Positions 1 through 50,641 of a stretch of DNA of 64,000 bases are shown piece by piece (the stretch's first letter is position 1; each line of letters starts with the position of its first letter). The notes below the pieces were generated by a model. It was not told where the DNA came from. It searched no databases and saw nothing but the letters and a program-made list of their open reading frames with translations. The stretch is from Bryobacterales bacterium (GTDB lineage Bacteria > Acidobacteriota > Terriglobia > Bryobacterales > UBA6623). The position numbers and the translations under genes are program-made. The stretch spans positions 2,001,375 to 2,065,374 of the forward strand of contig CBDCOA010000003.1 in assembly GCA_965219585.1 (NCBI GenBank), written 5' to 3'.

Positions 1-3000
1 CGGCAGCTTTGCCGATTGGTTGGAGGCGGAAGGCGTGCCGCGGGGGGCTTGGGAGGCACTGCCCGGGGACATGGAACGATTGTCGCGATCGTACGCTCTG
101 GCGGCTCTGGAGGCATTGGGCTGGCACCGCGAGAGAGGGGCGGCGGTCGATCCGTCGCGTTTGCGCAGAGAGTTGCGGGTGGTAGCGGGCCACAAGCGCT
201 TGCTGCAGTGCCTGCTGGGGATGCTGGCGGAGGCCGGGGTCTTGCAGAGGAGTGGGGCGAAATCCCGCGAGTGGGTGGTGGCCGTGGGTGCGGGAGAGAC
301 CCTGCCCGATGGCCTGGTGGAGTCACCCGCCGGGCTGGGCGAGAGCCTGGCGGAGAGGCACTTGCAGGCCACCCACGAGCTGGGTCTGCTGATGCGCTGC
401 GGGGGAGCATTGGCGGAGGTGTTACGGGGGCGGGCGGATCCGTTGGATCTGCTCTTCGGCGATGAGGGCTGCGGGGCGGCCGAGCTGTACCGGGAAGCAC
501 CGTTGCTGCGGGCCGCGAACCGCATGCTGGGTGCCGCGGTCAAGTTGCTAGTGGCAGGCTTGCCGGAGGAACGGCGTCTGCGGGTGCTGGAAGTAGGTGC
601 CGGCACGGGCAGCGCGACGGCGGAGGTGCTGGCAGCGCTCCCGAAGGGGCGGTTTGACTACGCCTACACGGACATCTCGGCGGGGTTCTTTGCGGAGGCA
701 GCGGAACGGTTCGGTTCCGCATTCCCGGGCATTGAGTACCGCGCGCTGGACATCGAGGCGGACCCGACGGCACAGGGATTGGATGCGCACGGGTATGACC
801 TCGTGATCGCCGGCAATGTGTTGCACGCGACGCGGGATCTGGAGCGGACGCTGGCGCACTGCCGTGGTCTGCTGGCGCCGGCCGGGCAGCTGGTAGCGCT
901 GGAGACCTTGCAACCGCAAGGGTGGCTGGACCTGACGTTCGGGTTGCTGGAGGGCTGGTGGCGGTTCGATGACCGCTACCGGGACGAGCACGCCGTGGTG
1001 GAGGCGGACGTTTGGCGGCAGGCCCTGGCGGAGGCGGGTTTCGGCAGCGTGGAGGTGCTTGAGGGGGGTGTCGGGGACGTGGTCGCGCACGGCGTGATCG
1101 TGGCGCGGGGGCCTCTCGAGGTCGAAGAGGCCGCTGGCCTGTGGGTGTTGGCAGGCGAAGGGTCGGAACTGGTTCGGGAACTGGCCGAGGCGCTGGTCAC
1201 GCGCAATCAGGCAGTGATCGTGGCGGGCGGCGACGCGTCCGAAGTGCCGCCGCCGGGCATCACGGCGGCATATGTCGATCCAGCGAAGCGCGAGGCCTGG
1301 CGTTCGCTGCTGGAGGACTTGCCCGCCGGGCCCCCGTTGCGGGGCGTCGTGCATCTGGGTGCGCTGACGGGGTGCGGACAAGCGGCCACGACCGAGGAAT
1401 TGGCGCATGACACAACCCGAGTGGGCTCGGAGGCATTGGCGCTGGTGCAGGGACTGCTGGACGCGGCCGTTGAGCCCGCGGACGGGCTGTGGTTCGTGAC
1501 GCTTGGCGCGCAAGTGGTCGAGCGCGAGCGAGGCGGCCAGTTGGCTGGGGCGACGCTGTGGGGCCTGGGCAAGACAGTGGCGCTGGAAGCGCCGCAGTTG
1601 TATCCGCGGCTGGTGGACCTCGACCCGTCTCAGACGGTGCGCGCCGAAATGCTCGCGGACGAGTTGCTGCATTCCGACCGGGATGCCCAAGTGGCTCACC
1701 GCGGCGACAGGCGCTATGCCGCCCGACTGGCACGCAGCGCTGGGACAGGGTGGTTGCGACTGCCAGAGGATTCGGCTTGGCGCTTGGCACGCGATCCGGA
1801 CGGGGTCTTGGCCGACCTGCAGGCAGGGCCGGCTGAGCTGGCCGCCCCCGGGCCCGGCGAGGTCCGCGTGCAAGTGACCGCGGCAGGGCTGAATTTCAAA
1901 GACGTTCTGATCGCGATGGGCCTAGTCGACGCCCACGTTCCCCTGGGATCGGAGTTCTGCGGCCAAGTGACTGCCACGGGTCCGGGAGTCACCGCGCTGG
2001 CGGTCGGCGACCGGGTGGCCGGTCTGGCAGGAGGCGCCTTCGCTTCTGAAGTCGTCACGCGCGAGGAACTGGTCGCGAAAGCACCCGCAGGAATGCCGGT
2101 GGCAGAGTTGGCAACCGTGCCGATAACGTTCGTGACCGCGGCGCTGGCCTTTGAGCTGGCTGGCGTGAAGCCGGGAGAGCGCGTATTGGTACATGCCGCG
2201 GCCGGGGGAGTGGGCCAGGCGGCCATCCAAGTGGCGGGCGCGCTGGGGGCGGTCGTGATCGCCACTGCGAGTTCCGGGAAGCGCGACCACCTGCGGTCCT
2301 TGGGAGTCGAGCACGTGTTCGACAGCCGATCGACGGAGTTCGGCGAGGAAATCCTCGCCCTGACAGAGGGTGCCGGGGTCTCGATGGTCCTGAACAGCCT
2401 GACGGGGCCGGGCTTCATCGAAGCGAGCCTGTCGTGCCTAGGCGTGGGCGGCCGCTTCGTCGAGATCGGCAAGCGTGACATCTGGAGCGGAGAGCGGATG
2501 GAAGCGGCGAGGCCGGATGTCGGCTACCGCGTCTTGGCCGTGGACCAACTCGTGATCGATGAGCCGGCCACCGTCGGCGCGGTGCTCCGAAAGGTGATGC
2601 AGCGTGTCGAACTGGGGGAGCTGCGACCGCTGGAATACAGCGCGTGGCCCCTGGCGGAGGCGGCAGCGGCCATGGAGCACATGCGGTCGGGGCGCCACAC
2701 GGGCAAGATCGTGCTCAGGTTTCCACCGCTGACGGTTGTCGGGCTGCGGCAGGACGGCACTTACCTGGTAACAGGCGGGCTCTCCGGGATAGGGCAACTT
2801 GCGGCTGGCTGGCTGGCGGACCGCGGGGCGCGCTGGATCGTGCTGAACGGCCGGCGGGAGCCCGGGCCGGAGGCCCAAGCGGCGATCACGGGCCTTCGGG
2901 AGCGCGGTGTCGAAGTGCGCGTCGAACTGGCGGACGTGACCGACTCCGGGGCCGTGGACGCGATGCTCGAGCGGATCGAAGCGGCGATGCCGCCGCTGGC

Positions 3001-38600: not shown

Positions 38601-41600
38601 ATGGCAGGGCTGGAAGCCTTGGGCTGGCGGCGCGAGAAGGGTGCGGTCGTAGATCTGTCCCTGGCGCAAGAGCAGCTGAAGGTCGTGGGGGACCACCGGA
38701 GACTGTTCGGGCGGATGCTCGCCATGCTGGCCGAGGCCGGGGTCTTGCAGGCGGAGGCGGAGGGCACCCCGGGCTGGGCGGTGGCCGTCGGCGCGGACGA
38801 CGACTTGCCAGAAGGACTGGCGTCGGAACCTGGGGCCGTCGGGGCGCGGCTGCTGGAGCGGCATGCACACGGCGCGCACGAGCTGGGCGTGCTAATTCGC
38901 TGCGGGGAGACGCTAGCGGACGTGCTGCGGGGCCACGCGGATCCGCTAGAAGTGCTGTCCGGCCCCGAAGGTGCCGGGCTGGCGGACATCTACCGGCACG
39001 CACCGGGGATGCGCGCGGCGAACCGTATGGTCGGCAAGACGGTGGCAGCGCTCGTGGCGGGCCTGCCCAAGGGCCGTCCTTTGCGGGTGCTCGAGATCGG
39101 GGCCGGCACGGGCAGCACGACGGCGGAGGTGCTGGCAGTGCTGCCGGCGGGTCGATTCAGCTATGTCTGCACGGACAGCTCCCAGAGTTGCCTCGCAGAG
39201 ACAGAGGCGCGATTCGGTGCGGGAGTCGAGTCCCGGGTGCTGGACATCGAGGCGGACCCGGCAGGCCAGGGGCTGGAGCCGCACCGATACGACCTGGTGA
39301 TCGCGGCGGACGTGCTGCACGCAACACGGGACCTCGGGAAGACACTGGAGCATTGCCGGAGGCTGCTGGCGCCGGCTGGGCACTTGGTGGTGCTGGAGTC
39401 CCTGCGCCCGCAGGCATGGCGGGACCTGACGTTCGGGTTGATGGAGGGTTGGTGGCGATTCGCGGACCCGTACCGGGACGATCAAGCCTTGGCGGGAGCG
39501 AGCGCGTGGCGGCAGGCGTTGGAGGAATCGGGCTTCGGTGACGTGGAAGTGCTGGAGAGCGGCGCGGAGGACACGGCCTGGCAAGGGGTGATCGTAGCGC
39601 GGGGCCAATTCGAAGCGGAGGAAGAGCCGGGCGTGTGGGTGCTGGCCGGAGGGGCTTCAGCGCTGGCTCAGGAGCTGGCCGAGAAGCTGGAGACACGCAA
39701 TCAGGCGGTCGTCTTGGCGAGGCACGACACGGACCAACTGGCAGGAGTCACGACGGCGTATGTGGACCCGACGAGGCGAGAGGCCTGGAGCTCGCTGCTG
39801 GCGGATCTGCGCAGCGAGGCCCCTCTGCGAGGCGTGGTGCACCTAGGCGCCCTAGAGGGCCACGGAGCAACGGCGACGACGCCGGAACTGGCACAAGACA
39901 TGGCCCGGATCGGGGAGGGGGCTCTGGCGCTGCTCCAGGGGCTGCAGGACGTGGGGGCTGAGCCCCTGGAAGGCATGTGGTTCGTTACGCGGGGTGGCCA
40001 AGTGGTCGAGCGCGAGCGAGGCGGCCAATTGGCAGGGGCGACGCTGTGGGGCTTGGCTAGGGCGGTGGCGCTGGAGGCACCGCAGTTGCGCTTGCGCATG
40101 GTCGATCTCGATCCGCGGGCACCGCTCCAGGCGGACTCGCTGCTAGACGAATTGCTGGATGCCGACCGGGAGACGCTCGTGGCTCACCGAGGCGCCACCC
40201 GCCATGCAGCGCGGCTCGTGCGGGCCGCCCGGACGGGCCGCCTGCGGCTGCCGGAGGAGGCGGGTTGGCGCCTTGCCCCGGGCACCGGCGGAAGCCTGGA
40301 TGACCTGAGGGTAGAGCCCGCAGGCCTGCCCGCACCGGGAGAAGGCAAGATCCGCGCATCCGTGAGCGCGGCAGGACTCAACTTCTACGACGTCTTGTCC
40401 GCAATGGGGGTTGTCGATCTGTACAACCCCCTGGGCGCGGAGTTCTGCGGTCGGGTAATCGCGATCGGTCCGGGCGTAACCTCAGTGGCAGTTGGAGACC
40501 GGGTGGCCGGCCTCGCCGCGGGAGCCTTCGGCCCCGAGGTTGTCACGAGCGAGGAACTGGTCGCGAAGTCGCGTTCCGGCTTGCCGGCGGCGGCGCTGGC
40601 AACCGTGCCGACGACTTTCCTGACAGCGGCCATAGCTTTCGAGCTGGCCGGCCTCCAAGCCGGCGACCGGGTGCTAGTGCACGCCGGGGCCGGCGGTGTG
40701 GGCTTGGCGGCAATCCGCTTGGCCCAGGCTGGCGGCGCGGAGGTGATCGCGACGGCGAGCAGCTGGAAGCGCCCGTATCTGCGGTCGCTGGGCGTGCAGC
40801 ACGTGTTCGACAGCCGAACCACGGCCTTCGGCGAGAAAGTTCTGGCGGTTACCGGGGGAGCGGGCGTCGAGGTCGTGCTGAACAGCCTGACGGGCCCGGG
40901 ATTCATCGAGGCGAGCCTTGCGTGCCTGGGCCAGGGCGGCAGGTTCGTCGAGATCGCCAAGCGCGACATCTTCAGCGCGGAGCAGATGGCGGCGGCCAGG
41001 CCAGATGTCGACTACCACATCCTGGCGCTCGATCAACTCGTGATCGATGAGCCGGAGAGAGTCGGAACACAGCTGCGGGCGTTGATGGATCGGATCGACT
41101 CCAAGGATTTGGAGCCGCTCCCGCACAGCGCATGGCCCCTAGCGGAGGCGAGCGCGGCGATGGAGCACATGCGGTCGGCGCGCCATGTGGGCAAGATTGT
41201 GCTGACGCTGCCGTCGCTGGCGTCCGGCGGGCTGCGGGGGAACGGCACGTATCTGGTGACGGGCGGCCTAGCTGGGATTGGACGACTGGCGGCGACCTGG
41301 CTGGCTGACAACGGGGCGCGCTGGATCGTGCTGAACGGCCGGCGGGAGCCCGACTCCGAAGCCGGCGCAGCAATCGCGGCGCTGCGGGAGCGGGGAGTCA
41401 CGGTGCAGGTGGAACTGGCGGACGTGACCGACTCCGCTGCCCTAGACTCCATGCTAGAGAGGGTCGAGGCTGCGATGCCGCCGCTGGCAGGGGTGATTCA
41501 CAGCGCGGGGGTAATCGCCGACGCATCGCTGACCAACCAAGACTGGGGGGGATTCGAGCGAGTCTTGGAGCCGAAAGTGCTTGGGGCCTGGCACCTGCAC

Positions 41601-44600
41601 AGGGCGACGGCGGACCGGGACTTGGATCTGTTCGTGATGTTCTCGAGCATTGCTGGCGTGCTGGGGAATGCAGGTCAGGCGAACTACGCGGCGGCGAACG
41701 CGTTTCTGGACCAGTTGGCGCGGCACCGGCGGTCGGTGGGATTGGTCGGCCAAGCGATCGCGTGGGGGGCTTGGTCGGAAGTGGGCGAAGCAGAAGAGCG
41801 GCGTGCTCGGATCGCGCAGCAGTTGGCGGCGGCCGGCCTGGGCTGGATCACGCCGGAACGTGGCCTGCGTGTCTTCGACAAGCTGCTGCGGCAAGACTTG
41901 GTTGCCCCGGCAGCGGTCTCGATGGACTGGCAACGGTTCGCAGCCCTTCTGTCAGCGGACCAGCCCCTGCTGGACGAGCTTGTGGACTCCAAGCCCGTAG
42001 CAGAGGAGACAGCCCCAACGCTCGATCTCAGGAACCGTCTGCGAGAGGCGTCGCCCGGGGATCGCGAAGCCCTGCTAATGGAAATCGTGCAGGGCGAGGT
42101 CCAAGCGGTCCTGCAGCTTGCCTCACCCCCAGACCCGGCCGTCGGCTTCTTCGATCTCGGCATGGATTCGTTGATGGCGATTGAGCTGACGAACAGGTTG
42201 AACAGGTTGTTGACTGGCGAGTACCGGCTGGCTAACACCGCCGTGTTTGACCATGTCGACATCGCGAGCCTCGCACGACACCTGGCCGTGGAACTGCGTG
42301 TCGTTGAAGATGAGAGCCCGGAACCCGAACGGGCCGCGGCCCGCAGGCCGGAGGATGGCGGGATCGCTGTAGTCGGAATGGCGTGCAGGTTCCCGGGCGG
42401 GCAGGACCTGTTCAGGTTCTGGCAACAGCTCGAGGACGGGGGCAGCGCAATCACGGCGGAACGGCCAGGGGATCTCTGGGTCCATGCTGTCAGCGATTCC
42501 AAGGCGAGCTCTTCAGTCCGAGAAGCCGGTCGTTGGGGAGCGTTCATCGACGGGATCGACCAGTTCGATCCCGGCTTCTTCCGGATCACACCGATCGAGG
42601 CAGAGGGGATCGATCCGCAGCACCGGCTGCTGTTGGAGACAAGCTGGCACGCGCTAGAAGACGCAGGGATTAATCCCGGCTCTCTGCGTGGCCGCCGAGC
42701 CGGGGTTTTCGTGGGGATTTCAGGCAGCGAGTACAAGGATCTGATCCAGGCAAGCGAGAGCGACTTCTTCGATATCACGGCCCTGGAAGGGAACAGTACG
42801 AGCACTGGGGTCGGCCGCGTCGCGCACTTCCTCGGCCTCGAGGGTCCGGCAATGCCCGTGGACACGACGTGCTCTTCGTCGTTGGTGGCACTGCACCAGG
42901 CTTCGGCGGCACTGCGCTTGGGAGAAGCCGACCTGGCGCTGGCGGGGGGCGTGAACGCGATTCTCTCGAAGCGTGCGACCTACGGGATGGCCGGAGTGGG
43001 ACTGCTGTCGAATGACGGGCAGTGCAGGGCCTTCGATGCCTCGGCCAACGGATACGTGCGAGGAGAGGGCTGCGGCATGGTGGTCCTGAAGCGCCTGGCT
43101 GACGCAAAACGCGACGGGGACCCAATCTGGGCAGTGATCCGAGGATCGGCCGTGAACCACAACGGGGGCGGGGCGGGCCTGACCGTGCCGAACCTTGGGG
43201 CGCAGAGTCGGCTGCTCAGGGAAGCGCTCGCGAGCGCCGGGTTGGAGCCCCCCGACGTGGACTATCTTGAGGCACATGCGACGGGGTCGCTGCTTGGGGA
43301 CTCAGTCGAGTTGCAGGCCGCAGCCGAGGTGTACGGGGCGGGACGATCTTCCGACAGACCCCTGCTGCTGGGGTCCGTGAAGTCGAACATTGGGCACTTG
43401 GAGGCCGCTTCCGGCGTGGCTAGCCTGATCAAGGTTGTCCTAGCGATGCAGCGGCGGACCATTCCCAGGCACCTGCACTTCCGCGAGCCAAGCCCTGAGA
43501 TCGATTGGGGAAACTTGCCAGTGAAGGTCACGTCGGACGAAACTCCGTGGCTTTCGGCACAGCCTGGCTGCCCCTTGAGGGCAGGCATCAGTTCCTTCGG
43601 GCTCTCGGGCACAAACGCACACGTGCTCGTCGAGAGTTGCCAAACGACGGGCACCCATTCCGAGCGGGCGGCGCTCTCCGTGGCAGTCCCGATGCACTCT
43701 TCCGCGGGCTCAGAAACCACGGAGGGATCGTTCCGGGAGCGGGAGACAAGGCTGCTGCCGCTGTCGGGGCGGTCCGCGAGGGCGGTCCGCGACCTAGCCG
43801 GCCAATACTTGTCTTGGCTCGAACAGAATGCGGAGCGGCCAGCCGCGGAACACGAGGGTTCGGACCCGCCTGCCACCAGTGCAGACGCTGCCTCGCTGCT
43901 TGCGGACATGGCGTGGACGGCGGGAGTGGGCCGGAACCACTTTGGCCATCGGGTGGGATTGGTGTTCGGAAGTGCCGACGAACTGCGGGAAAGGTTGACA
44001 GCATTGGCAAGTGCGCGCGACGCCGCCCACTTTGCCGGACGTGCACCGAGTGTGGCATTTGTGTTTGCGGGCCAAGGCAGCCAGTGGCCAGCCATGGGGA
44101 GGGCACTCTACGAGAGAGAGCCAGACGGGCGGGCGATCTTGGAGCGCTGTGACCGGGTTATGCGGAAAGTGCGCGGGGTATCGCTGGTGGATGCGATGCT
44201 CGGTCGGCCAGGTGCCGCCGACGATCAGGGCGATCCGCTTTGGGCGGAACCGGGGCTGTACGCGGTGGAGTGTGCGCTGGCGGCCCTGTGGGAGAGGGTG
44301 GGGGTACGACCAGTCACGGTGCAGGGACACGGCGTGGGCGAGTTGGCGGCGGCCAAGGTTGCCGGAGTGTTCGGCCTGGAAGACGGCCTGCGACTCGCAG
44401 CGGCGCGGGGTGCGCTGAGTAGTTCCTTGCCCACAACAGGTCCGCGCGCCGGAACCCTCCTAGCCGTCTCCGCTCCCATGGAACGCTTGGAGACTGCCTT
44501 GGGCGCGCTGAATTCCGATTCAAGTCACGCTGGGCCGAGCGTGGTGTTGGATTCCGGGACACACCGCCTAGTCCATGGACCGGTGGCGGACATGGAACGG

Positions 44601-45158
44601 CTGGAAGCGCTGATCTCGGCTGAAGGGCTGCGGACGGAGAGGGTGAAGCCGGGGAGGGCTTCGCACGGCAGGTTGGCGGAAGCAGGACTCCATGAACTCG
44701 AATCGGCATTCCAAGGGACAAAGATGACGGTGCCGTCAGTGACCTTGGCCAGTTCGACCACCGGTCGCGATGTCGAGCCAGCCAAGCTGCTGGAGGCGAC
44801 GTACTGGCGACGCCAGGCTAGCGAGCCGGCAATCGACGGACGCAGTGCGGAGGCACCGCAGACACGGAAGGCGGGAATGGTCCTGGAGATCGGCTTCGAC
44901 GGGGACCCGCTGCGGGTCGTGGGCCAGGATTCGCCCAAGGCAGACACCAATGTCGACCCGGCACCTGAGCAGGGGATAAGCCTCCGGCAAGAATCTGGCA
45001 GTTCCAGCGGCTTTGCGACGGCGGTGGCCGCGGCGTACGAGGCTGGCGCGGCGCTCTCGTTCGAAGGGCTGTTCACCGGGGAGAGGCGCCGAAAGGTGCC
45101 GCTGCCGGGCTATCCGTTCCAGCGGGAGCGCTACTGGGTCACGCCCTCCAAGCATTAG
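11691..45158 (+). CDS. Giant type I modular polyketide synthase, 11,155 aa. Four complete KS-AT-DH-cMT-psiKR-ER-KR-ACP modules (C, D, E, F) followed by a terminal KS-AT(Ser->Gly) didomain with no ACP or TE.
   Basis: ATG at 11691 overlaps the gene 1 stop by 8 nt (gacgATGGATAAgt). One uninterrupted ORF runs to TAG at 45156-45158. The IA(I/V)[10 protein letters not shown] starts lie at 11784, 19482, 27099, 34734 and 42363. GHSVGE/HAFHS ATs, HxxxGxxxxP DHs, LE(V/I)GAGTG cMTs, TGGLAGIG KRs and GxDSL ACPs recur with about 7.6-kb period. Confidence 0.95.
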   Translation: MDKLTKYERLSRKLLAELNLRKEEIAQFRQPIAIVGMACRFPGGEGLASYWRQLEEGRCTVTEGRPGSVAGAPIVGSRPGSEAQDARRWGSFVREIDRFDADFFRIAPVEARLLDPQQRMLLETSWHALEEAGIDPSRLVETRTGVYAGISTSDYRALLAAGGEQDSGLYAVSGVSGSTAIGRVAFVLGLQGPAIAVDTACSSSLVALHQACVALQQGEADLALAGGVNAILAPSVTEATSKAGMLAPDGRCKTFDASANGFVRGEGCGIVVLKRLANAEADGDRIWAVIPGSAVNHDGASAGLTVPNGPAQEKVIAEALARAGLEPADVDYLEAHGTGTELGDPIEVHAASSAYGSGRRAGRPLLIGSVKTNIGHLESAAGVAGLIKVVLSMDRGVIPKHLHFRNPNPRIAWEHLPVEVTSEALPWPSFADRPWRAGLSSFGFSGTNAHMLIEAYGRPRGRSAQTKPSFSKRGLAVDVPVSLPAQAPALAAGQGPLAPREQRLLPLSGRSSKAVRELASRYLAWLQGRESEALGEEESQALLADMAWTAGLGRTHFDRRAGLVCGDLAELRSGLEEVVAGREIARAAQEPQVAFVFTGQGSQWAGMGRWLYEREPVARAVLDRCEQVMQELRGASLLDVMFGEPAAGSLDETEWTQPTLYALECALAAQWASVGVRPAAVLGHSVGEIAAAQAAGVFGLEDGLRFAAARGESMGSLPTEGPAAGAMLAVFAPQQRVAEALAEHNAGAAGAGLSLAADNGTHRVVSGPRAELEAIAEHFEPAGVRVAWLNTSHAFHSALMDPALADIEGALEAVALRSPAVPLVSNVAGRAMRAGEQLDGAYWRRQAREPVAFAAGVAALAEIGAEVVIEIGPQAVLGPLVEQAWPAGNAGGAESRPAVLGSLRREEGAAGGFAAAAAAAYEAGVAVSFEHLFAGESRRRVSLPVYPFQRERFWVDPLQRPTAGEGHALLGARRESARGGLTFETEMYSSAPAWLGDHRVFGMVVAPGALYGVLGVEVAASAAGEGAAVLEDLQLHEPLVWAQETPDGVAGGEGRSVQVFVDGDEGASPRVVEVYSRAGSEAAWQLHATARVLRGRADTGGAIDPKALREGLSSVDSADFYRGVAERGIEYGALFRGLAAVWSGPGEALGEVVLPPEADRGEMWLHPAQLDACFQVVGTTGGDDGDSAADTFMPFGWERLWLAGPLPDRVLCHARTRQARGAGGAGAEASEVQVVDLGLYDQQGMPLGGVSGLVLKRATRAALLSAVEGVDDLLYEVVWRERPQLGGPQSADFLAAPGVVGELRGSFAENLEAEGAALESWDDLLAGLAQLSQSYALAGMDALGWHRETGAIVEPEPLRRQLRVVADHRQLFRRLLEMLEQAGILQAQATESPSWVVTAGSGEPLPEGVAENPRALGAELLERHPAGSQELGLLMRCGDALADVLAGRVEPLELLFGGEDSGAAGLYHHSPGMRAANRTLGAAVGLLAAGLPERRRLRVLEVGAGTGSATAQALQTLPKGRFEYLYTDISAGFFAEAEERFGAEHAGIDYRVLDIEADPEVLGLDAHGHDLIIAANVLHATRDLEKTLENCRRLLAPAGLLVALETFRPQEWMDLTFGLLEGWWRFSDRYRSEHAMAGEAAWRQALKDAGFGDAEVLQGCVGDVVWQGVIVARGPLEVDEAPGLWVLAGNGSELVQELAGRLATRNQTVVVAGPGTRPEASPHARITSADVDPAKREAWRALLEGLPADARLRGVVHLGALDERGNAVTAAELAECTARIGKSALALVQGLQDAGAEPLDGLWFVTRGGQVVKRDQGGELAGATLWGLGKAVALEAHQLRPRMVDLDPREPEPLGRLVDELLHADRETHVAHRGAARYAARLARSAGTGRLGLPGEPGWRLARPAGGELDALGIEPAGLAAPGAGEIRVAVAAAGLSLHDVLIAMGTVDQASPLGTEFCGRVVAIGPGVTAVSVGDRVIGLAAGAYGPEVVTSQELVAKAPGEFPAAALATIPAAFVTAALALELGGLEAGQRVLVHTGAGDVGLAAIQLARAAGAAVFATASTEKLAHLRSLGVEQVFDSQPAAFGQEVLAVTAGAGVEMVLSSLTGPGFIEASLTCLAQGGRFVEIAGRDTWSAEQMAEARPDVGYHTLAVDRLVSEEPERVGAHLRVVAQGMENGALVPLPHSAWPLAEAGGAMEYFRSERPVGKAVLTLPRLVTGGLREDGTYLITGGLAGIGLLAAGWLADNGARWIVLNGRREPGPEAEAAIAGLRERGVEVRVELADVADSAAVDGMLERIGATMPPLAGAIHSAGVLADASLANQGWERFEKVMGPKVLGAWHLHRATLGRDLDLFVLFSSLTGVLGNAGQANHAAANAFLDQLARHRQSLGLPGQSIAWGPWSEVGEAEEQRSRIAERLAATGLGWIVPRRGMRALDRLLRQDVVSGTVLSVDWPRFGSRLPARQSLLEELVAPRAAAQSAAAKVDLVERLRTVPAREREGLLAGFLQGELQAVLRLASPPEVTSGFFDLGMDSLMAVELRNRLNRAFRGEYKASSTAVFDFPDIKSLAEHLAAELGETEAASTERERPVPAQALEGGIAIVGMACRFPGARDLSEFWDELEGAGWAVTPGRQGSAVGPTEDDFPESLGEHDARRWGAFVDEIDQFDAEFFRIAPVEAELLDPQQRLLLETSWLALEEAGIDPGRLKGGRSGVYAGIYTNDYSELIDRAGRRTTDLYVATGNSASTAIGRVAFALGLEGPAMAIDTACSSSLVAVHQAAVALQRGEADLALAGGVNAILTTTGSELLAKGGLLAPDGRCKTFDGSADGFVRGEGCGVVVLKRLREAEADGDRIWAVIRGSAVNQDGASAGLTVPNGPAQERVIGDALARAGLEPAEVDYLEAHGTGTELGDPIEVQAAAAVYGRGRAPDRPLLMGSVKTNIGHLEAAAGIAGLIKVALSMERGVLPRHLHFEKPSPRIDWDALPVEVAAEARRWPATPGRPVRAGVSSFGLSGTNSHVVLEAPDRDGKGPRDRAATAESESGGSRERLLPLSGRSPRAVRELAGRYLSWLRDRDGEASGEQESRSLLADMAWTAGLGRSHFDHRAGLVCADLAELRSGLEAVVAGREIARAAHGPQVAFVFTGQGSQWGGMGRWLYEREPVARAVLERCEQAMQELRGASLLDVMFGRPGAAGDLDDTGWTQPALYALECALAAQWASVGVRPAAVLGHSVGEIAAAHVAGVFGLEDGLRFAAARGESMGSLPVEGEASGAMLAVFAPQQRVAEALAEHGGGAAETGLGVAAENGTHRVVSGPRAALEALAERFELAGVRVARLNTSHAFHSALMDPALDTIEGALEAVELGTPAVPLVSNVTGRALRAGERMDGAYWRRQAREPVAFAAGVAALAEIGAGLVVEIGPQAVLGPLVEQAWPAGNGGGSGSKPAVLASLRREEGAAGGFAAAAAAAYEAGAAVHFEGLFAGESRRRMSLPGYPFQRERFWVEPPKRRIAGGGHALLGVRHEAARGGVTFETEMYSSDPAWLEEHRVFGMVVAPGALYGVMGVEVAATQSGAGAAALEDLQLHEPLVWDQARPDGAAGGDGRSVQVFVDGAAGSSGRVFEVYSRGGAESAWRLHATARVRRGQADTGRAIDPQSLRTGLSGVDSTDFYQSIAERGIEYGPLFRGLAAVWTGPGEALGEVVLPPEAGRDGMWMHPAQLDACFQVVGAAGRDSGESGADTYIPFGWERLWLSGPLPGQLLCHARTREAGHAAGAGSEAAQTLVADLDLYDQRGMPLGGVSGLVLKRATRAALLSAVEGVDDLLYELVWRERPRIGGPQSADFLAAPAAVRGLAGSFAEWLAAGGVPLASWTALEGGLEQLSRSYAMAALEALGWRRRKGSVVDPSRLRRQLKVVADHRKLFSRLLGMLAEAGLLQARAADLPGWSVAVGAREDLPEDLVEPRELARLLRERHAHGSVELGLVMRCGEALADVLRGRVDPRELLGGDHAGAQGVYRDAPAMRAVHRMMGATVGALVAGLPEQRRLQVLEIGAGTGSATAEVLAALPEGRFDYFYTDILAGCFPEARERFGAAIECRVLDIEEDLAIQGLEAHRYDLVVAANVLHATRDLGKALENCRKLLAPAGQLVTLEAFQAAAWRDLTFGLAEEWWWSSDRYRGECPLVGASVWRQALADAGFGEAEVLEGAVEDAVWHGVIVARGPLEVEQDPGLWVLAGDASPAVWELAEKLAASNQAVIVAGQAEERDSAQPAGVTTAYVDPTRREAWRALLGDPPAEAPLRGVVHLGALEGRGAAAATPELAQDVARIGASALALVQGLQDAQAKLLDGVWFVTRGGQAVERERGGQVAGSALWGLGKTVGLEAPQLRARMVDLDPRLPLQLDALVSELLHADPETHIAHRGATRHAARLVRGPRTGRLRLPEEAGWRLARDAAGALDALRVEPASLAAPGAGEIRASVTAAGLDFHDVLFAMGIADLQSELGAEFCGHVTETGTGVTAVSVGDRVVGLAAGAFGPEVVTSEELVARAPAGLSAAALATVPTAFLTAARGFELAGLEAGDSVLVHAGAGAVGMAAIRLAQAAGAVVIATASDSKGAYAQSLGVEHVFEGQATAFAQKVLDVTGGAGVAIVLNGAAGPDCVEASLSCLARDGRFVETVRDGSWSSEQMAAARPDVAYHAPAIDQLLVDEPGQIGTQLRALMRRMEAGELEPPLYSAWPVAEAGAAMELLRSGRTEGKLALMLPPLASGGLREDGTYLVTGGLAGIGRLAAGWLADSGARWIVLNGRREPDAEARAAIASLRERGVDVRTELADVTDPAAVDAMLERIEATMPALAGVIHSAGVISDASLANQDWERFEGVLGPKVLGAWHLHRATANRDLDLFVLFSSIAGVLGNPGQANYAAANAFLDQLARHRRSLGLAGQSIAWGPWSVTGQAEELRSRLAEGMAAGGVGWIRPRRGLRALDRLVRQDVVNGTVLSVDWPQFASRLPVTLPQLEELVAAGPAAQDRAAKTDLAERLRAVPAGEREGLLSGFLQAEVQSVLRLASPPDPTAGFFDLGMDSLMAVELRNRLNRELGGEYKASSTAMFDFPDIKSLAGHLAAELGEIEPAPIERKRPLPAQGLDGGIAIVGMACRFPGAQDLPGFWRELEAAECAVTPGRQNSTVGPTDEDVEGLLGEDDARRWGAFVEEIDKFDAEFFRIAPVEAELLDPQQRLLLETSWLALEEAGIDPGRLKGGRTGVYAGILSNDYSELIDRAGRTTSDLYVATGNAGSTAIGRVAFALGLEGPAMAVDTACSSSLVAVHQAVVALERGEADLALAGGVNAILTSTGNELLAKGGMLAADGRCKTFDASANGYVRGEGCGVVVLKRLQEAQADGDRIWAVIRGSAVNQDGASAGLTVPNGPAQERVIGEALARAGLEPADVDYLEAHGTGTELGDPIEVQAAAAAYGPGRAPDRPLLMGSVKTNIGHLEAAAGVAGLIKVALSMEHGVLPRHLHFEKPSPRIDWDALPVEVTAEARRWPTTPGRPVRAGVSSFGFSGTNSHVVLEAPDRNGKGPVDRSATAESESGGSRERLLPLSGRSPRAVRELAGRYLSWLRDRDGEASGEQESRSLLADMAWTAGLGRSHFDHRAGLVCADLAELRSGLEAVVAGREIARAAHGPQVAFVFTGQGSQWGGMGRWLYEREPVARAVLERCEQAMQELRGASLLDVMFGRPGAAGDLDDTGWTQPALYALECALAAQWASVGVRPAAVLGHSVGEIAAAHVAGVFGLEDGLRFAAARGESMGSLPVEGEASGAMLAVFAPQQRVAEALAEHGGGAAETGLGVAAENGTHRVVSGPRAALEALAERFELAGVRVARLNTSHAFHSALMDPALDTIEGALEAVELGTPAVPLVSNVTGRALREGERMDGAYWRRQAREPVAFAAGVAALAEIGAGLVVEIGPQAVLGPLVEQAWPAGNGGGSGSRPAVLASLRREEGAAGGFAAAAAAAYEAGAAVHFEGLFAGESRRRVSLPGYPFQRERFWVEPPKRRIAGGGHALLGTRRDMVGGEVTFETQMFASAPEWLGDYSVLGLIVVPGSLYGAAAVETAGAMPGMAGVVVEDLHVQVPMHFAGEDGHSEPDDRGKTVQVVVKDTEESAARRMELYSQGPEDTWTLHAAARLGRPADRVDLPAAVDIEARRSGLSPKSAPDIYRGLAATGIEYGEALRSVEAVWSSQGEAVAEIALPGGLEPMGSWLHPAQIEGFFQLAALLANDTEGARPGALIPSGWERLWLVGPLPERLVCCARMRASNGVGLQRAGDSGAQVADLDLYDPRGMPLGGVSGLALKPTTRAALLSAAGGVEDLLYEVVWREQPWVSGLQSAGFLAAPSAAGELRGTFIEKLEAEGAVLESWEELLGGLAQVSRSYALAGMEALGWHRETGAIVEPEPLRRQLRVVADHQHLFRRLLGMLEKAGVLQARETESPSWVVTVGSGEPLPEGVAQNPRALAEGFLERHPSGSHEMSLLMRCGDALADLLAGRVEPLELLFGGEFAGLADLYHHSPGMRAANRMLGAAVGLLAAGLPEGRRLRVLEVGAGTGSATAEALKALPAGRFEYLFTDLSAGFFAEAEERFGATDAGIEYRVLNIEAAPEGLGLPAHRHDVIIAANVLHATRDLAKTLENCRRLLAPAGLLLALETFRPQEWMDLTFGALEGWSRFSDQYRSEHAMADEGVWRQALADTGFGEVEVLEGGVGDVVWQGVLVARGPLEVADTPGLWVLAGNGSAAAQELAGRLATRNQTVIVAGQGTMPEASQHARITAADMDPAKREAWRALLEGLPAEARLRGVVHLGALNEQGNAVTTAKLAECTTRIGESALALVQGLQDAGAEPLDGLWFVTRGGQVVKRDQGGELAGAMLWGLGKAVAMEADQLRPRMVDLDPREPEPMDRLVDELLHADRETHVAHRGAARFAARLVSSARTGRLGLPGEPGWRLTRDTGGAPDALRVESAGLAAPGPGEVRVAVAAAGLNSHDVLIAMGISDQHSPLGTEFCGQVTSTGAGVTEVSAGDRVVGLASGAFGPEVLASEELVAKAPDGFPAAALAAIPAAFVTAELALELGGLEAGHRVLVHAREGDVGLAAVQLARAAGAEVLATASTDMLAYLRSLGVEHVFDSQATDLGQEVLAATAGAGVGMVLNSLAEPGFIEASLACLEQGGRFVEIAGRDTWSAERMAEARPDVGYHVLALDRLASDEPARVGTQLRSAVRRMGARKLEPLPHSAWPLAEAGAAMEYFRSERPVGKVVLTLPRLATGGLREDGTYLVTGGLAGIGLLAADWLADCGARWVVLNGRQEPDAEAKPAIEALRKLGVEVRVEVTDVTDSAAVDGMLERIERTMPPLAGVIHSAGVLADATLANQGWERFERVIGPKVLGAWHLHTATAGRDLDFFVLFSSIAGVLGNAGQANHAAANAFLDQLAWHRRSMGLAGQSIAWGPWSEVGEAEEQRARIAERLAASGVGWIVPRRGLRVLDSLVRRDVVCATVLSVDWSQFASHLPATLPLLRELVAPRAGGRGVAAKVDLVERLRAVSARERERLLAGFLQGEVQAVLRLASPPEVTSGFFDLGLDSLMAVELGNRLNRAFGGEYKPTSTEVFDFPDIKSLAGHLAAAFGEIEEAPAGPERPVPTLGQEGGIAIVGMACRFPGARDLSAFWDELAGAGCAVTPGRQGSSVGPSEGDFPEQVGEQDARRWGAFVDEIDLFDAEFFRIAPVEAEVLDPQQRILLETSWLALEEAGIDPGRLRGGRTGVYVGIATNDYSEVIERGGRRTGDLYVATGNSGSTAIGRVAFSLGLEGPAMAVDTACSSSLVALHQGVAALERGEADLVLAGGVNAILTPTSTELLAKGGMLAPDGVCKAFDAAANGFVRGEGCGVVVLKRLREAEADGDRIWAVIRGSAVNQDGASAGLTVPNGPAQERVIGQALARAGLEPAEVDYLEAHGTGTELGDPIEVRAAAAAYGRGRAANRPLLMGSVKTNIGHLETAAGIAGLIKVVLSMEHGMLPKHLHCRQLNPRIDWDALPVEVTTEARPWPASPDRPVRAGVSSFGFSGTNSHVVLEAPESHRRGHGPLMPIAAAQAGTGGPPEPRGKRLLPLSGKSSLAVRELAGRYLSWLESRGGVLGQGEESESLLADMAWTAGAGRSHFEHRASVVFGDLSELRAALEELAADREIARAAQEPQVAFVFTGQGSQWAGMGRWLYEREPVAQAVLDRCEKVMQELRGASLLEVMFGQPGAAGDLDDTGWTQPALYALECALAAQWASVGLSPVAVLGHSVGEIAAAQVAGVFELEDGLRFAAARGELMGSLPVDGPEAGAMLAVFASPQRVSQALEEHAAGDDGSGLSLAAENGTHRVVSGPLEEVETLAKRFEQAGVRVARLNTSHAFHSTLMDPVLDDIEEALEAVTLGSPAVALVSNVTGRAVREGERLDGAYWRRQAREPVAFAAGVQALAEIGVDVVVEIGPQAILGPLVEQAWPAESSDGAVSGPRVVESLRREAGGANGFSAAVAGAYEAGAAISFEGLFAGEIRRRVPLPGYPFQRKRFWIEQGKRKVTEEGHALLGARRDSARGGMAFETDLHATDPAWLADHRVFGMVVAPGALYGVLGVEAAATTGGTDAVVLQDLQLHEPMIWLEEPEDGPPAGEGRTVQVFVDGAEGSSGRLFEVYSQGSGETAWQLHATARVERGEAGTPEAIGLGALRETLSRVDSTDFYRSIRRRGIVHGPAFQGLAAIWSGPGEAIGEVVLSSQAGPGRLWMHPAQLDACFQVVVATVRDAEEFDSDTYMPIGWERMWLAGPVPERMFCHARLLERPDAGTPGPGPAEVLVAELGLYDMQGAALGGVRGLVLKRATRAALVSAIEGVEDLLYETAWRKQPRAGRQRAADLPAAQAGLEQLRGSFAESLASEGVPPEAWSALHEDLDRLARSYAMAGLEALGWRREKGAVVDLSLAQEQLKVVGDHRRLFGRMLAMLAEAGVLQAEAEGTPGWAVAVGADDDLPEGLASEPGAVGARLLERHAHGAHELGVLIRCGETLADVLRGHADPLEVLSGPEGAGLADIYRHAPGMRAANRMVGKTVAALVAGLPKGRPLRVLEIGAGTGSTTAEVLAVLPAGRFSYVCTDSSQSCLAETEARFGAGVESRVLDIEADPAGQGLEPHRYDLVIAADVLHATRDLGKTLEHCRRLLAPAGHLVVLESLRPQAWRDLTFGLMEGWWRFADPYRDDQALAGASAWRQALEESGFGDVEVLESGAEDTAWQGVIVARGQFEAEEEPGVWVLAGGASALAQELAEKLETRNQAVVLARHDTDQLAGVTTAYVDPTRREAWSSLLADLRSEAPLRGVVHLGALEGHGATATTPELAQDMARIGEGALALLQGLQDVGAEPLEGMWFVTRGGQVVERERGGQLAGATLWGLARAVALEAPQLRLRMVDLDPRAPLQADSLLDELLDADRETLVAHRGATRHAARLVRAARTGRLRLPEEAGWRLAPGTGGSLDDLRVEPAGLPAPGEGKIRASVSAAGLNFYDVLSAMGVVDLYNPLGAEFCGRVIAIGPGVTSVAVGDRVAGLAAGAFGPEVVTSEELVAKSRSGLPAAALATVPTTFLTAAIAFELAGLQAGDRVLVHAGAGGVGLAAIRLAQAGGAEVIATASSWKRPYLRSLGVQHVFDSRTTAFGEKVLAVTGGAGVEVVLNSLTGPGFIEASLACLGQGGRFVEIAKRDIFSAEQMAAARPDVDYHILALDQLVIDEPERVGTQLRALMDRIDSKDLEPLPHSAWPLAEASAAMEHMRSARHVGKIVLTLPSLASGGLRGNGTYLVTGGLAGIGRLAATWLADNGARWIVLNGRREPDSEAGAAIAALRERGVTVQVELADVTDSAALDSMLERVEAAMPPLAGVIHSAGVIADASLTNQDWGGFERVLEPKVLGAWHLHRATADRDLDLFVMFSSIAGVLGNAGQANYAAANAFLDQLARHRRSVGLVGQAIAWGAWSEVGEAEERRARIAQQLAAAGLGWITPERGLRVFDKLLRQDLVAPAAVSMDWQRFAALLSADQPLLDELVDSKPVAEETAPTLDLRNRLREASPGDREALLMEIVQGEVQAVLQLASPPDPAVGFFDLGMDSLMAIELTNRLNRLLTGEYRLANTAVFDHVDIASLARHLAVELRVVEDESPEPERAAARRPEDGGIAVVGMACRFPGGQDLFRFWQQLEDGGSAITAERPGDLWVHAVSDSKASSSVREAGRWGAFIDGIDQFDPGFFRITPIEAEGIDPQHRLLLETSWHALEDAGINPGSLRGRRAGVFVGISGSEYKDLIQASESDFFDITALEGNSTSTGVGRVAHFLGLEGPAMPVDTTCSSSLVALHQASAALRLGEADLALAGGVNAILSKRATYGMAGVGLLSNDGQCRAFDASANGYVRGEGCGMVVLKRLADAKRDGDPIWAVIRGSAVNHNGGGAGLTVPNLGAQSRLLREALASAGLEPPDVDYLEAHATGSLLGDSVELQAAAEVYGAGRSSDRPLLLGSVKSNIGHLEAASGVASLIKVVLAMQRRTIPRHLHFREPSPEIDWGNLPVKVTSDETPWLSAQPGCPLRAGISSFGLSGTNAHVLVESCQTTGTHSERAALSVAVPMHSSAGSETTEGSFRERETRLLPLSGRSARAVRDLAGQYLSWLEQNAERPAAEHEGSDPPATSADAASLLADMAWTAGVGRNHFGHRVGLVFGSADELRERLTALASARDAAHFAGRAPSVAFVFAGQGSQWPAMGRALYEREPDGRAILERCDRVMRKVRGVSLVDAMLGRPGAADDQGDPLWAEPGLYAVECALAALWERVGVRPVTVQGHGVGELAAAKVAGVFGLEDGLRLAAARGALSSSLPTTGPRAGTLLAVSAPMERLETALGALNSDSSHAGPSVVLDSGTHRLVHGPVADMERLEALISAEGLRTERVKPGRASHGRLAEAGLHELESAFQGTKMTVPSVTLASSTTGRDVEPAKLLEATYWRRQASEPAIDGRSAEAPQTRKAGMVLEIGFDGDPLRVVGQDSPKADTNVDPAPEQGISLRQESGSSSGFATAVAAAYEAGAALSFEGLFTGERRRKVPLPGYPFQRERYWVTPSKH
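11784..19410 (+). other. PKS module C: KS 11784-13060, AT 13467-14555, DH 14585-15480, cMT 15945-16725, psiKR 16745-17380, ER(degenerate) 17385-18335, KR 18363-19060, ACP 19180-19410
   Basis: AT has GHSVGE and HAFHS. DH has DHRVFGMVVAP and AQLDACFQ. ER reads HTGAGDVG and RFVEIAG (Gly 18078-18080 at the Lys position). KR reads QANHAAAN (cac 18804-18806). ACP Ser is at 19287-19289. Confidence 0.85.
19482..27030 (+). other. PKS module D: KS 19482-20755, AT 21096-22190, DH 22215-23100, cMT 23565-24335, psiKR 24355-25000, ER(degenerate) 25005-25950, KR 25981-26680, ACP 26800-27030
   Basis: DH has EHRVFGMVVAP and AQLDACFQ. ER reads HAGAGAVG and RFVETVRD, with no Lys. KR has the canonical QANYAAAN (tac 26421-26423). 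ACP Ser is at 26904-26906. Confidence 0.85.
20800..22235 (+). repeat. AT-domain repeat, copy 1 (module D KS-AT linker + AT + post-AT linker)
   Basis: Copy 2 lies exactly 7617 nt downstream. 20800-21805 is identical by direct reading. The supplied track confirms this: shadow ORFs 20809..21240, 20882..21694 and 21109..21705 translate identically to 28426..28857, 28499..29311 and 28726..29322. 21806-22235 differs by roughly a dozen substitutions. Confidence 0.9.
27099..34665 (+). other. PKS module E: KS 27099-28372, AT 28713-29807, DH0 29832-30720, cMT 31190-31970, psiKR 31990-32625, ER(degenerate) 32630-33585, KR 33615-34310, ACP 34435-34665
   Basis: The DH motif reads WLGDYSVLGLIVVPG, with Tyr codon tac 29931-29933 where the other modules have His. 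It also reads AQIEGFFQ, with Glu 30453-30455 where the others have Asp. ER reads HAREGDVG and RFVEIAG. KR reads QANHAAAN (cac 34056-34058). ACP reads GLDSL (Ser 34539-34541). Confidence 0.85.
28417..29852 (+). repeat. AT-domain repeat, copy 2 (module E)
   Basis: See copy 1. Identity decays upstream of ~28417 (KS region about 90% at protein level) and ends abruptly after HALLG at 29852, where the divergent module E DH begins. Confidence 0.9.
34734..42300 (+). other. PKS module F: KS 34734-36010, AT 36366-37455, DH 37488-38360, cMT 38840-39610, psiKR 39630-40255, ER 40260-41212, KR 41243-41940, ACP 42065-42300
   Basis: DH has DHRVFGMVVAP and AQLDACFQ. ER has HAGAGGVG (~40679-40703) and RFVEIAK with Lys codon 40959-40961. 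KR has QANYAAAN (tac 41685-41687). ACP Ser is at 42168-42170. This is the only complete module in which every reductive motif is canonical. Confidence 0.85.
42363..45158 (+). other. Terminal KS-AT0 didomain: KS 42363-43635, AT-like 44052-45155. No ACP, TE, reductase or condensation domain follows.
   Basis: KS has VDTTCSSS, EAHATGS and SNIGHLEAASG, so Cys/His/His are present. The AT-like region has GQGSQW but reads VQGHGVGE, with Gly codon ggc at 44331-44333 at the active-site Ser position, and RASHG where the other modules have HAFHS. The ORF stops right after the post-AT linker YPFQRERYWVTPSKH. Confidence 0.85.
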
Positions 45159-50402: not shown

Positions 50403-50641
50403 ACCCGCATTCGGACAGCTGCTAGCTTCGAGCTGGCGGGTCAGCTGGAGACCTCAGGCCCCATATCGGCATCAGCGCCGCAAACACTTCAGCGGTTGGG
50501 CGAACATGCAAGACCAAGGGCCCAATATCCCGGCCGCCTTATATATAATGGGCGCAGACCGCCGACGGCCCAGGCCTTCGGGCCAGCGGTGATCCGGTGA
50601 GTGAGTTGTCTGGAGCAAGCCGGCGCCCCGCAACTTCTGTA

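Follow-up and report, generated by a model that had tools for sequence, protein, structure and literature searches.

SUP-type synthases ("sponge symbiont ubiquitous") are single-module type I PKSs for which mid-chain methyl-branched fatty acids have been proposed as products, as yet unproven (PMC4245539, PMC9426513). Sponge MAGs carry the domain string KS-AT-DH-cMT-ER-KR-ACP together with a "repeat of the KS-AT modules", flanked by abhydrolase and PPTase genes (PMC11832590). In the single-module loci that we compared, PPTase and alpha/beta-hydrolase genes follow the synthase. The SupA KS clade was reportedly defined by Fieseler et al. in 2007. As judged from its architecture, its neighbours and its habitat, the locus described here appears to be an expanded, many-module relative of these single-module, cMT-containing synthases of sponge symbionts. 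It lies in a stretch of 64,000 nt, the whole of which was analysed (the window), with the following features.

2..11698, + strand: gene 1, cut by the window start; partial module 0 and module 1 (Pfam)
2..3877, + strand: module 0, partial; cMT ~554-1045, ER 1850-2716, KR 2756-3292, ACP 3614-3796 (Pfam)
3878..11783, + strand: module 1, KS-AT-DH-cMT-ER-KR-ACP, then the gene 1/gene 2 junction (Pfam)
11691..45158, + strand: gene 2, 11,155 aa; modules 2-5 and terminal KS-AT
11784..19481, + strand: module 2, KS-AT-DH-cMT-ER-KR-ACP (Pfam and motifs)
19482..27098, + strand: module 3, KS-AT-DH-cMT-ER-KR-ACP, KR with canonical Tyr (Pfam and motifs)
20799..21805, + strand: exact direct repeat, copy 1, 1,007 nt; linker and AT of module 3
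27099..34733, + strand: module 4, same domain order, degenerate DH (~29838-30731) and ER (~32709-33575)
28416..29422, + strand: exact direct repeat, copy 2, 1,007 nt; linker and AT of module 4, 7,617 nt downstream of copy 1
34734..42362, + strand: module 5, KS-AT-DH-cMT-ER-KR-ACP, KR with canonical Tyr (Pfam and motifs)
42363..43481, + strand: terminal KS, Cys-His-His triad kept (DTTCSSS, EAHATGS, NIGH)
44058..45155, + strand: terminal dead AT, Ser replaced by Gly in GHGVGE, RASHG at the HAFHS position
45783..46931, + strand: sulfotransferase, 382 aa (Pfam Sulfotransfer_3, 1.5e-33)
47384..48292, - strand: alpha/beta-hydrolase, ~300 aa, the conserved part of a 462-aa ORF (47384-48769)

Gene 1 contains no stop codon from base 2 to 11698 and thus extends upstream of the window, in line with the first-pass annotation, which had the assembly line continuing in that direction. 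It ends in an acidic tail (EEFSDEDDG, then the stop codon). Gene 2 starts 8 nt inside gene 1 (overlap sequence ATGGATAA) and is a single unbroken ORF of 11,155 codons (11691-45158), as had been reported for the 33.5-kb frame. Its product had been ranked among very large bacterial polypeptides; it is large but, to our knowledge, of unexceptional size among polyketide synthases. The six KS starts annotated earlier (3878, 11784, 19482, 27099, 34734 and 42363) proved exact; they are spaced by 7906, 7698, 7617, 7635 and 7629 nt, and all six are in frame and open with IA(I/V)VGMACRFPG. HMM annotation of both ORFs returned the Pfam order KS-AT-DH-Methyltransf_12-ER-KR-ACP in the modules starting at 3878, 11784, 19482, 27099 and 34734, which confirms the domain set of five complete modules. 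The sixth KS heads only a KS and a dead AT: gene 2 ends at the post-AT motif YPFQRERYW, with no ACP after the terminal AT. The window thus holds five complete modules, one partial module cut by its edge and a terminal KS-AT didomain, where six full modules had been counted. Their supposedly identical architecture stands at the Pfam level and fails at the DH and ER motifs of module 4. In its layout, a row of modules that all have an AT of their own, the synthase is a modular cis-AT type I PKS. PSCyt2/PSD1 and DUF1501 genes in the window at first pointed to a planctomycete, an origin discarded in view of the 99.4% match to a Bryobacterales MAG described below. The exact RelA/SpoT protein is absent from the record. 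Scans of the whole window for tRNA and Rfam families returned no match.

The window matches MAG contig JAJDZN010000329 at 99.4% identity over 18.5 kb, gap-free. This MAG, jk18x40bins.51, belongs to the Bryobacterales (Acidobacteriota, family UBA6623) and was recovered from the sponge Ircinia strobilina (PMC9531527, supplementary file 5), a match that places the synthase in a sponge symbiont. The locus shares with SUP-type systems this habitat (their phylum range includes Acidobacteriota), the domain order of every module as seen by Pfam, a terminal KS whose AT lacks the active serine, a neighbouring alpha/beta-hydrolase that is homologous and a His-for-Tyr signature in the KR. It differs in scale, with at least six modules in series against one in the small SUP-type enzymes, and in being encoded by two giant genes with a docking-type junction. 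In addition, the terminal AT is of full length in the window and internally deleted in SUP-type synthases, one module has a degenerate DH and ER, and the locus carries an extra sulfotransferase and no PPTase.

Arrays of the same module type occur in other public MAGs, namely of Bryobacterales (L003, L009, L012, L013, L017), Rhodothermales (L010, L014, L019), Alphaproteobacteria (L011, L015) and Binatia (L006). They likewise contain consecutive KS-AT-DH-cMT-ER-KR-ACP modules (50-69% protein identity), and in L015 a terminal KS is followed by a homologous hydrolase. Read within 24 kb, most differ from the window in having two or three full modules followed by modules without ER, and none has the sulfotransferase. 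Such runs in several phyla make the array less novel than first claimed, and not unique. L003 (69% identity) was considered as an orthologue from which upstream modules might be deduced and was rejected, its modules showing no one-to-one pairing with those of the window. A search of the literature on the bacterial domain string, on deoxypropionate with methyltransferase and on Acidobacteria/Bryobacterales PKSs found no characterised homologue, no product is known for any family member, and the Acidobacteriota are, as had been stated, a lineage with few characterised polyketides. The papers retrieved for the domain string itself were exclusively or mostly on fungi.

Module motifs, predicted product and the sulfotransferase

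Malonyl-type AT motifs (GHSVGE and HAFHS) are found in four of the five elongating ATs in the window, module 1 reading QAFHS in the second; the count leaves out the cut module 0, whose AT falls beyond the window start. All six cMTs retain the SAM motif and the His/Glu pair. Modules 0-3 and 5 have intact DH, ER and ACP motifs. Module 0, the KS-AT-DH part of which lies upstream of the window, has intact motifs in the domains that are present, and its KR, like that of module 1, has His at the Tyr position; the DH motifs of module 1 are intact. Module 4 stands apart: in its DH the catalytic His is replaced by Tyr and the Asp by Glu, and the NADPH motif of its ER is damaged (HAREGDVG). This DH is an outlier, with 43-48% identity to every other DH and the lowest Pfam DH score, and the same DH and ER changes recur in an independent MAG contig (L024). 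From these motifs, module 4 is predicted to leave, probably, a beta-hydroxyl. The motifs of AT, KS, DH, cMT, ER, KR and ACP domains are reproduced in independent assemblies.

Our main reading, to which we assign a probability of roughly 0.6, is that the locus encodes a collinear multi-module cis-AT PKS of an uncultured Bryobacterales symbiont of Ircinia, an expanded SUP-type relative whose proposed product is a methyl-branched, possibly sulfated lipid. The product would probably be a long-chain lipid in which every second carbon bears a methyl branch. This fits the long C-methylated, lipid-like class put forward earlier, given the malonyl-type motifs in four of five ATs and the cMT residues in six of six. 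Each module would add a malonyl unit, methylate its alpha carbon from SAM and then reduce it fully. Assuming that the modules are used collinearly, the six visible ones would place six methyl branches on alternate carbons of a chain that is saturated save for one hydroxyl from module 4, at C5 while the chain sits on the last ACP. The chain would then pass to the cysteine of the terminal KS, from which the hydrolase may release it as an acid or delta-lactone, or from which it may be condensed with an extender on a separate ACP; the sulfotransferase would sulfate the remaining hydroxyl.

SUP-type synthases rank with the most abundant biosynthetic genes of sponge microbiomes, and published accounts still call their product proposed or cryptic. 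One module that looks iterative says little about what it makes, whereas a collinear relative with six or more modules predicts traits that can be searched for: a ladder of C3H6 units, methionine-derived methyls and a single hydroxyl or sulfate group. Mass spectrometry of Ircinia strobilina, from which the matching MAG was recovered, could be used to look for such a compound. If found, it would provide the first chemical handle on the SUP family and bear on where the methyl-branched lipids ascribed to sponge symbionts come from.

The sulfotransferase lies between the synthase and the alpha/beta-hydrolase. The hydrolase shares 45% identity with one that adjoins single-module synthases and 59% with one that adjoins a multi-module synthase, and is a probable release or transfer partner of the synthase; it also weakly matches zearalenone lactonase. 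The N-terminal 160 aa of the 462-aa ORF were rejected as a genuine domain, as they are unconserved in the closest homologue. The sulfotransferase itself might be a horizontally acquired passenger without a role in the pathway. Its GC content (0.49, against 0.66 in the synthase) is foreign, the gene is missing from more distant relatives and from the GTDB relatives, and its composition and this absence count against our model; the next homologues (46% identity) were found away from synthases in the one locus checked. The gene is nevertheless kept directly after the synthase stop in three lineages (99, 78 and 74% sulfotransferase identity) whose other neighbours differ (the hydrolase only; Metallophos, PPTase and hydrolase; an RND efflux system), and exactly one module of the array is predicted to leave a hydroxyl. 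We regard a passenger gene as unlikely. A further point against the model is that the window has no PPTase, unlike related loci; among the relatives, this gene is broken in L076 (an 87% relative) and intact in L078.

The terminal KS and dead AT

The terminal KS motifs are identical in L001 and L024; in L076 and L158 the motif scan recovered EAHATGS alone. A terminal KS with a vestigial AT (Ser to Gly) recurs in nine single-module loci, and each single-module relative examined shows either this change or a deleted AT. The KS retains both His residues, not obviously needed by a pure holding station, and neither an ACP nor a supply of extender for it can be seen; we count both observations against the model as formulated above. 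A tentative proposal, which we hold to be rather unlikely as it stands, is that the terminal KS and dead AT form a new type of off-loading device, in which a KS still able to condense, but deprived of an AT and ACP of its own, would couple the completed polymethyl chain to an extender borne by another carrier protein, such as the malonyl-ACP used in making fatty acids. On this view SUP enzymes in general would place methyl-branched blocks within ordinary fatty acids, with a single branch for a single-module enzyme and six or more here, and the product would be a very long, sulfated, polymethyl-branched lipid. If true, this would be a counterpart of the acyl chains in mycobacterial sulfolipids, built with SAM and by way of ketoreductases with His for the canonical Tyr. 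The locus also raises two enzymological questions, one on a conserved terminal KS without AT or ACP, the other on the family-wide His at the ketoreductase Tyr position.

Ketoreductase signature and integrity of the array

Canonical KRs need the Tyr for catalysis. Four of the six KRs in the window (modules 0, 1, 2 and 4) carry QANHAAAN, with His for the catalytic Tyr, and by the usual rule would score as inactive, which speaks against the model. Were they indeed inactive, alpha-methyl-beta-keto units would be left in place, giving a product other than a saturated lipid. In the homologues, however, His is the family rule at this position (79 of 83 motifs, with Tyr in 3 and Gln in 1), and these homologues keep intact ER cofactor motifs. 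In the His-type KRs the active-site Lys, Ser and Asn are all present, as is the NADPH motif, and modules 1 and 2 still have their catalytic DH residues; with inactive KRs, DH and ER would lack a substrate, yet both are conserved. Loss of ketoreduction appears improbable to us.

It is equally improbable that the array is in part an assembly artefact, with modules gained, lost or swapped through recombination-prone repeats. The 1,007-nt exact repeat is common to modules 3 and 4 and its copies lie exactly one module apart, and among the independent assemblies seen none covers positions 1-28,504 of the window. Against this, no other exact match between modules exceeds 50 nt and the modules diverge by 24-39% at the protein level (61-76% identity), so that a collapsed or expanded repeat, which the first-pass annotation had named as a concern, is not what we find. 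Positions 28505-47025 (the confirmed last 18.5 kb) are collinear and gap-free in the MAG from another sample, as are positions 35783-49446 in an ENA assembly. The frame is open across 33.5 kb, and the 3' layout is the same in relatives at 80% and 87% identity. The matching MAG contig begins inside module 3, with an expected start near 25,974 by coordinate arithmetic. For the upstream flank, a protein search with the first 1,292 aa gave at most 61% identity, and the matches listed were all of 2,260 aa or less; an exact 32-mer from the window start was absent from the JGI metagenome collection, and the best match in a protein scan of the same collection reached 52% identity.

Comparison with other known systems

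Jam/Cur-type modules had been named for comparison; closer are the single-module cMT synthases of sponge symbionts, whose terminal KS-AT and alpha/beta-hydrolase and PPTase neighbours recur in this family (PMC11832590, PMC4245539). CurJ/JamJ and CurM do resemble the window in that a cMT is embedded in a cis-AT module and the line closes with a sulfotransferase, but the cyanobacterial loci are only 35-38% identical to the window and continue past an active AT. The least probable reading that we weighed, and one rejected on the PDB comparison, has the sulfotransferase act as in curacin CurM or cyanobacterial olefin synthase (OLS), by activating a beta-hydroxyl for hydrolysis and decarboxylation to a terminal alkene and hence a polymethylated hydrocarbon: a sulfotransferase and a hydrolase do stand at the end of the line, but the sulfotransferase is a separate gene and not a CurM/OLS-type ACP-ST-TE fusion, it matches 2z6v (9e-13) and 2zq5 (1e-9) against E = 0.18 for the olefin-synthase structure 4gox, the last complete module is fully reducing and so leaves no beta-hydroxyl on the last ACP, and the hydrolase family is widespread without any sulfotransferase.

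Fungal highly reducing PKSs and animal FAS are iterative single modules. The window shares their domain order, in which the methyltransferase sits between DH and ER, and differs in its at least six chained modules and its KS-dead-AT end. Mycobacterial Mas and Pks2 are single iterative modules without cMT, have a methylmalonyl-specific AT and draw their methyls from methylmalonyl-CoA. Against the Pks2 and Pks13 NCBIfam models, the terminal KS-AT scores far below threshold, with 494 against a cut-off of 2400 in the Mas/Pks2 comparison. The likeness to Mas/Pks2 and sulfolipid-1 lies in the predicted product, a saturated acyl chain methyl-branched at alternate carbons and with a link to sulfation, whereas the synthase in the window is multi-module, with malonyl-type ATs and a cMT in each module, and its methyls would come from SAM.

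Organization and assembly of the module array

Five modules in the window are complete, another is truncated by the window edge, and a KS-AT didomain closes the array. The gene 1 frame is open from base 2 until its stop at 11698, and gene 1 thus enters the window from upstream; its 3′ end reads GAT GGA TAA, and the ATG of gene 2 lies 8 bases ahead of that stop. Gene 2 (11691-45158) is a single ORF of 11,155 amino acids with no internal stops on translation, confirming the first-pass annotation, whose KS starts are likewise exact: all six are in frame and open with IA(I/V)VGMACRFPG. By Pfam, the modules starting at 3878, 11784, 19482, 27099 and 34734 show the full order Ketoacyl-synt, Acyl_transf_1, PS-DH, Methyltransf_12, ADH_zinc_N, KR and PP-binding, and the segment 2-3877 is methyltransferase-ER-KR-ACP. 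The six equal modules originally proposed are not borne out, as the sixth KS (42363) heads only a KS and an AT-like domain (931 residues to the end of the segment, post-AT motif YPFQRERYW). The plus-strand GC skew is strongly positive (0.10-0.25) over the whole synthase (window 1-46000) and near zero or slightly negative over 46000-64000, which is probably an effect of the codon and amino-acid composition of the giant genes.

The modules share 61-76% protein identity in pairwise comparisons, and exact nucleotide matches from one module to another reach at most 50 nt, with the exception of a 1,007-nt exact repeat covering the linker and AT in modules 3 and 4:

20799-21805, copy 1, in module 3
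28416-29422, copy 2, in module 4, exactly one module from copy 1

Domain-wise, modules 3 and 4 are 89% identical in the KS, 97% in the linker and 99% in the AT, and modules 2 and 4 share 77-87% identity from the DH-cMT linker through the ER. Such a mosaic across modules is consistent with inter-module recombination. The repeat is the sole place where the assembly could have gained or lost a module. Window 28505-47025 is covered by a GTDB MAG contig at 99.4% identity with zero gaps, its 112 mismatches being evenly distributed and the reading frame staying open. An ENA contig (35783-49446) and a Logan contig (45111-48823) match at 99.4-99.5%, and the 3′ layout recurs in relatives at 87% and 80% nucleotide identity; for window 1-28,504, no independent sequence was seen among the matching assemblies. 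The GTDB MAG contig, JAJDZN010000329.1 ("Bryobacterales bacterium isolate jk18x40bins.51"), belongs to a 6.18-Mb genome with 63.9% GC from the sponge Ircinia strobilina, assigned to Acidobacteriota, Acidobacteriae, Bryobacterales, family UBA6623 (Kelly et al. 2022 supplementary tables, PMC9531527).

Catalytic residues and predicted product

The KS of all five complete modules reads DTACSSS, and the DSL serine is kept in all ACPs. The five AT domains carry GHSVGE together with HAFHS (modules 2-5) or QAFHS (module 1), which we take to be malonyl-type signatures. In all six cMT domains VLE(V/I)GAGTGS is retained, as are the histidine of NVLHAT and, 27 residues further, a glutamate, a His-Glu spacing reportedly similar in the CurJ cMT. 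These AT motifs and cMT residues support the product class suggested earlier, a poly-C-methylated lipid-like polyketide. Module 4, previously read as equivalent to the others, differs: the DH motifs HxxxGxxxxP and DxxxQ, intact in modules 1, 2, 3 and 5, are YSVLGLIVVP and HPAQIEGFFQ here, with both catalytic residues replaced, and the ER motif is HAREGDVG instead of HA(G/A)AG(G/D/A)VG. Among the DH domains, that of module 4 scores lowest in Pfam and is only 43-48% identical to each of the others, and the DH/ER residues of this module recur in an independent MAG.

At the canonical catalytic Tyr position, the KR domains contain either His (QANHAAAN) or Tyr:

2756-3292, His-type KR, module 0
10466-10999, His-type KR, module 1
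18363-18899, His-type KR, module 2
25980-26513, Tyr-type KR, module 3
33615-34151, His-type KR, module 4
41244-41780, Tyr-type KR, module 5

Standard annotation rules score a KR with His at this position as inactive. The KR motifs found among the best 120 database homologues comprise 79 His, 3 Tyr and 1 Gln, making His the family norm, and 105 intact ER motifs occur among the same homologues. Given the conserved DH and ER beside them, the His-type KRs are probably active.

Methylation at the beta-keto stage is the established order for embedded cMTs. We propose that every module would condense malonyl-ACP, that the cMT would methylate the alpha-carbon of the beta-keto intermediate, and that KR, DH and ER would next fully reduce the methylated intermediate. 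Modules 0-3 and 5 would yield CH2-CH(CH3) units and module 4 CH(OH)-CH(CH3), placing a 5-hydroxy-2,4,6,8,10,12-hexamethyl acyl thioester, extended from a primer, on the last ACP. From there the chain would be transferred to the terminal KS, where the Cys (DTTCSSS) and the two His residues (EAHATGS, NIGH) are intact; in the adjoining AT, the active serine is replaced by glycine (GHGVGE), and RASHG replaces HAFHS. Two fates appear compatible: a conserved hydrolase could hydrolyse or lactonise the chain, or the chain could be condensed with an extender borne by another, separate ACP, and this second fate would account for the His residues retained in the terminal KS.

Genes flanking the synthase

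Downstream of the synthase we located the following genes:

45783-46931, sulfotransferase (Sulfotransfer_3, Pfam)
47384-48769 (-), alpha/beta-hydrolase ORF, 462 aa, homology over the last ~300 residues
49068-50402 (+), molybdopterin oxidoreductase, sulfite-oxidase type
50597-52939 and 52456-54408 (+), PSCyt2/PSD1 and DUF1501 gene pair
57111-59330 (-), RelA/SpoT, housekeeping
59432-60307 (-), TPR protein, housekeeping
62283-63032 (-), TonB C-terminal domain protein, housekeeping
63067-63969 (-), SecF, housekeeping

No Pfam family clearly fits the ORFs 54509-57256 (-) and 60803-62173 (+). PSCyt2/PSD1-DUF1501 pairs are usually associated with Planctomycetes; the pair here is in an acidobacterium, and a planctomycete origin, which it had first suggested, was rejected because the matching MAG contig is from Bryobacterales.

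Three lineages have the sulfotransferase 3′ of the synthase stop codon, namely the window's species and the relatives represented by loci L076 and L158. In L076 it is 78% identical, and a metallophosphoesterase and a broken PPTase separate it from the hydrolase; in L158 (74%) an RND efflux system comes next instead. That the sulfotransferase stays next to the synthase although the remaining neighbours vary speaks for a common function, and the single hydroxyl predicted for module 4 would be its obvious target. The next homologues share 46% identity, with no synthase found beside one in the one locus checked, and the gene was not found in the loci of more distant relatives. Its GC content (0.49 in the window, 0.46 in L076 at 4243-5412, compared with 0.66 for the synthase) is low in two species, which suggests an old horizontal acquisition, since retained. 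The best solved relatives in a PDB comparison are 2z6v and 2zq5, presumably mycobacterial Stf sulfotransferases.

The hydrolase shares 59% identity with that found 3′ of a multi-module synthase in L015, and 45% over its last 300 residues with that of the single-module locus L004, where the synthase is followed by a PPTase and a 301-aa alpha/beta-hydrolase. The first 160 residues of the 462-aa ORF are not conserved, so its start is probably mis-called and the true start internal. The family comprises >1,000 clusters at 90% identity, and its best solved relative is zearalenone lactonase (E = 1.4e-8). In relatives, a metallophosphoesterase and a PPTase separate the hydrolase from the synthase end (L076 2473-4132; L078 6450-8269), the L076 PPTase being split and adjoining a transposase fragment. 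Both genes are lost from the corresponding interval in the window (46932-47383), and the synthase must therefore rely on a PPTase encoded elsewhere.

Relationship to SUP-type and other synthases

A GTDB scan returned 73 loci, which we mapped with the window's own domains. Nine are made up of a single KS-AT-DH-cMT-ER-KR-ACP module and a further KS after it. Their sources are Latescibacterota, Dehalococcoidia, Albidovulum and Rhodothermales, and L016 originates from the same Ircinia study. Eight of the nine were aligned: the second KS keeps its Cys in all eight and has lost the first His in one (L066, EAQGVGS), the second AT is either serine-less with its centre deleted or wholly absent, and all proteins end at YPF(Q/E)RR... 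Exactly this architecture, with a repeated KS-AT after the ACP, has been described in sponge MAGs, flanked by an abhydrolase and a PPTase and with product not known (Chen et al. 2025, PMC11832590). "Sup" is the dominant single-module sponge PKS, with methyl-branched fatty acids as its proposed product (PMC4245539), and SUP-like clusters are reported from Chloroflexota, Spirochaetota, Proteobacteria and Acidobacteriota (PMC9426513). Judged from architecture, neighbours, habitat and host range, the window synthase is best filed with Sup.

Near-uniqueness of the array is not supported. Runs of the same module type are found in MAGs of Bryobacterales (L003, L009, L012, L013, L017), Rhodothermales (L010, L014, L019), Alphaproteobacteria (L011, L015) and Binatia (L006), which places the window array in a broader set that is still undescribed; these loci were read over at most 24 kb, and their run lengths are lower bounds. 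Several arrays have two full modules and then an ER-less one, followed in L009, L010, L012, L013, L017 and L011 (Bryobacterales, Rhodothermales, Alphaproteobacteria) by another module, a recurring pattern that hints at one multi-module cluster type spread horizontally among sponge symbionts. The closest relative, L003 (69% identity), is from another Ircinia species; it was rejected as a one-to-one orthologue, its modules not pairing one-to-one with the window's. Two loci of a Rhodothermales MAG (OY760427.1; L019 and L014, both 3482-6500) open directly with a Cys-to-Ser KS (GTASSSS), then a Ser-to-Gly AT (GHGIGE) and an ACP, possibly a loading didomain mirroring the terminal KS-dead-AT.

Literature searches found no bacterial cluster of this module series that has been characterised. 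The locus can best be classed as a new SUP-type variant, expanded and sulfotransferase-bearing, and its main interest is that a long-unsolved family gains a specific, searchable product prediction. The olefin-synthase sulfotransferase (4gox) is only marginally similar to the window's (E = 0.18). The cyanobacterial loci L029, L026, L031 and L065 have two consecutive cMT-ER modules, but their next KS has an active AT and ∼600 further residues, and they make up a distinct group at greater distance (35-38% identity). SUP-type single-module synthases share with the window the module order and the terminal KS with a serine-less AT, whereas the window has many modules.
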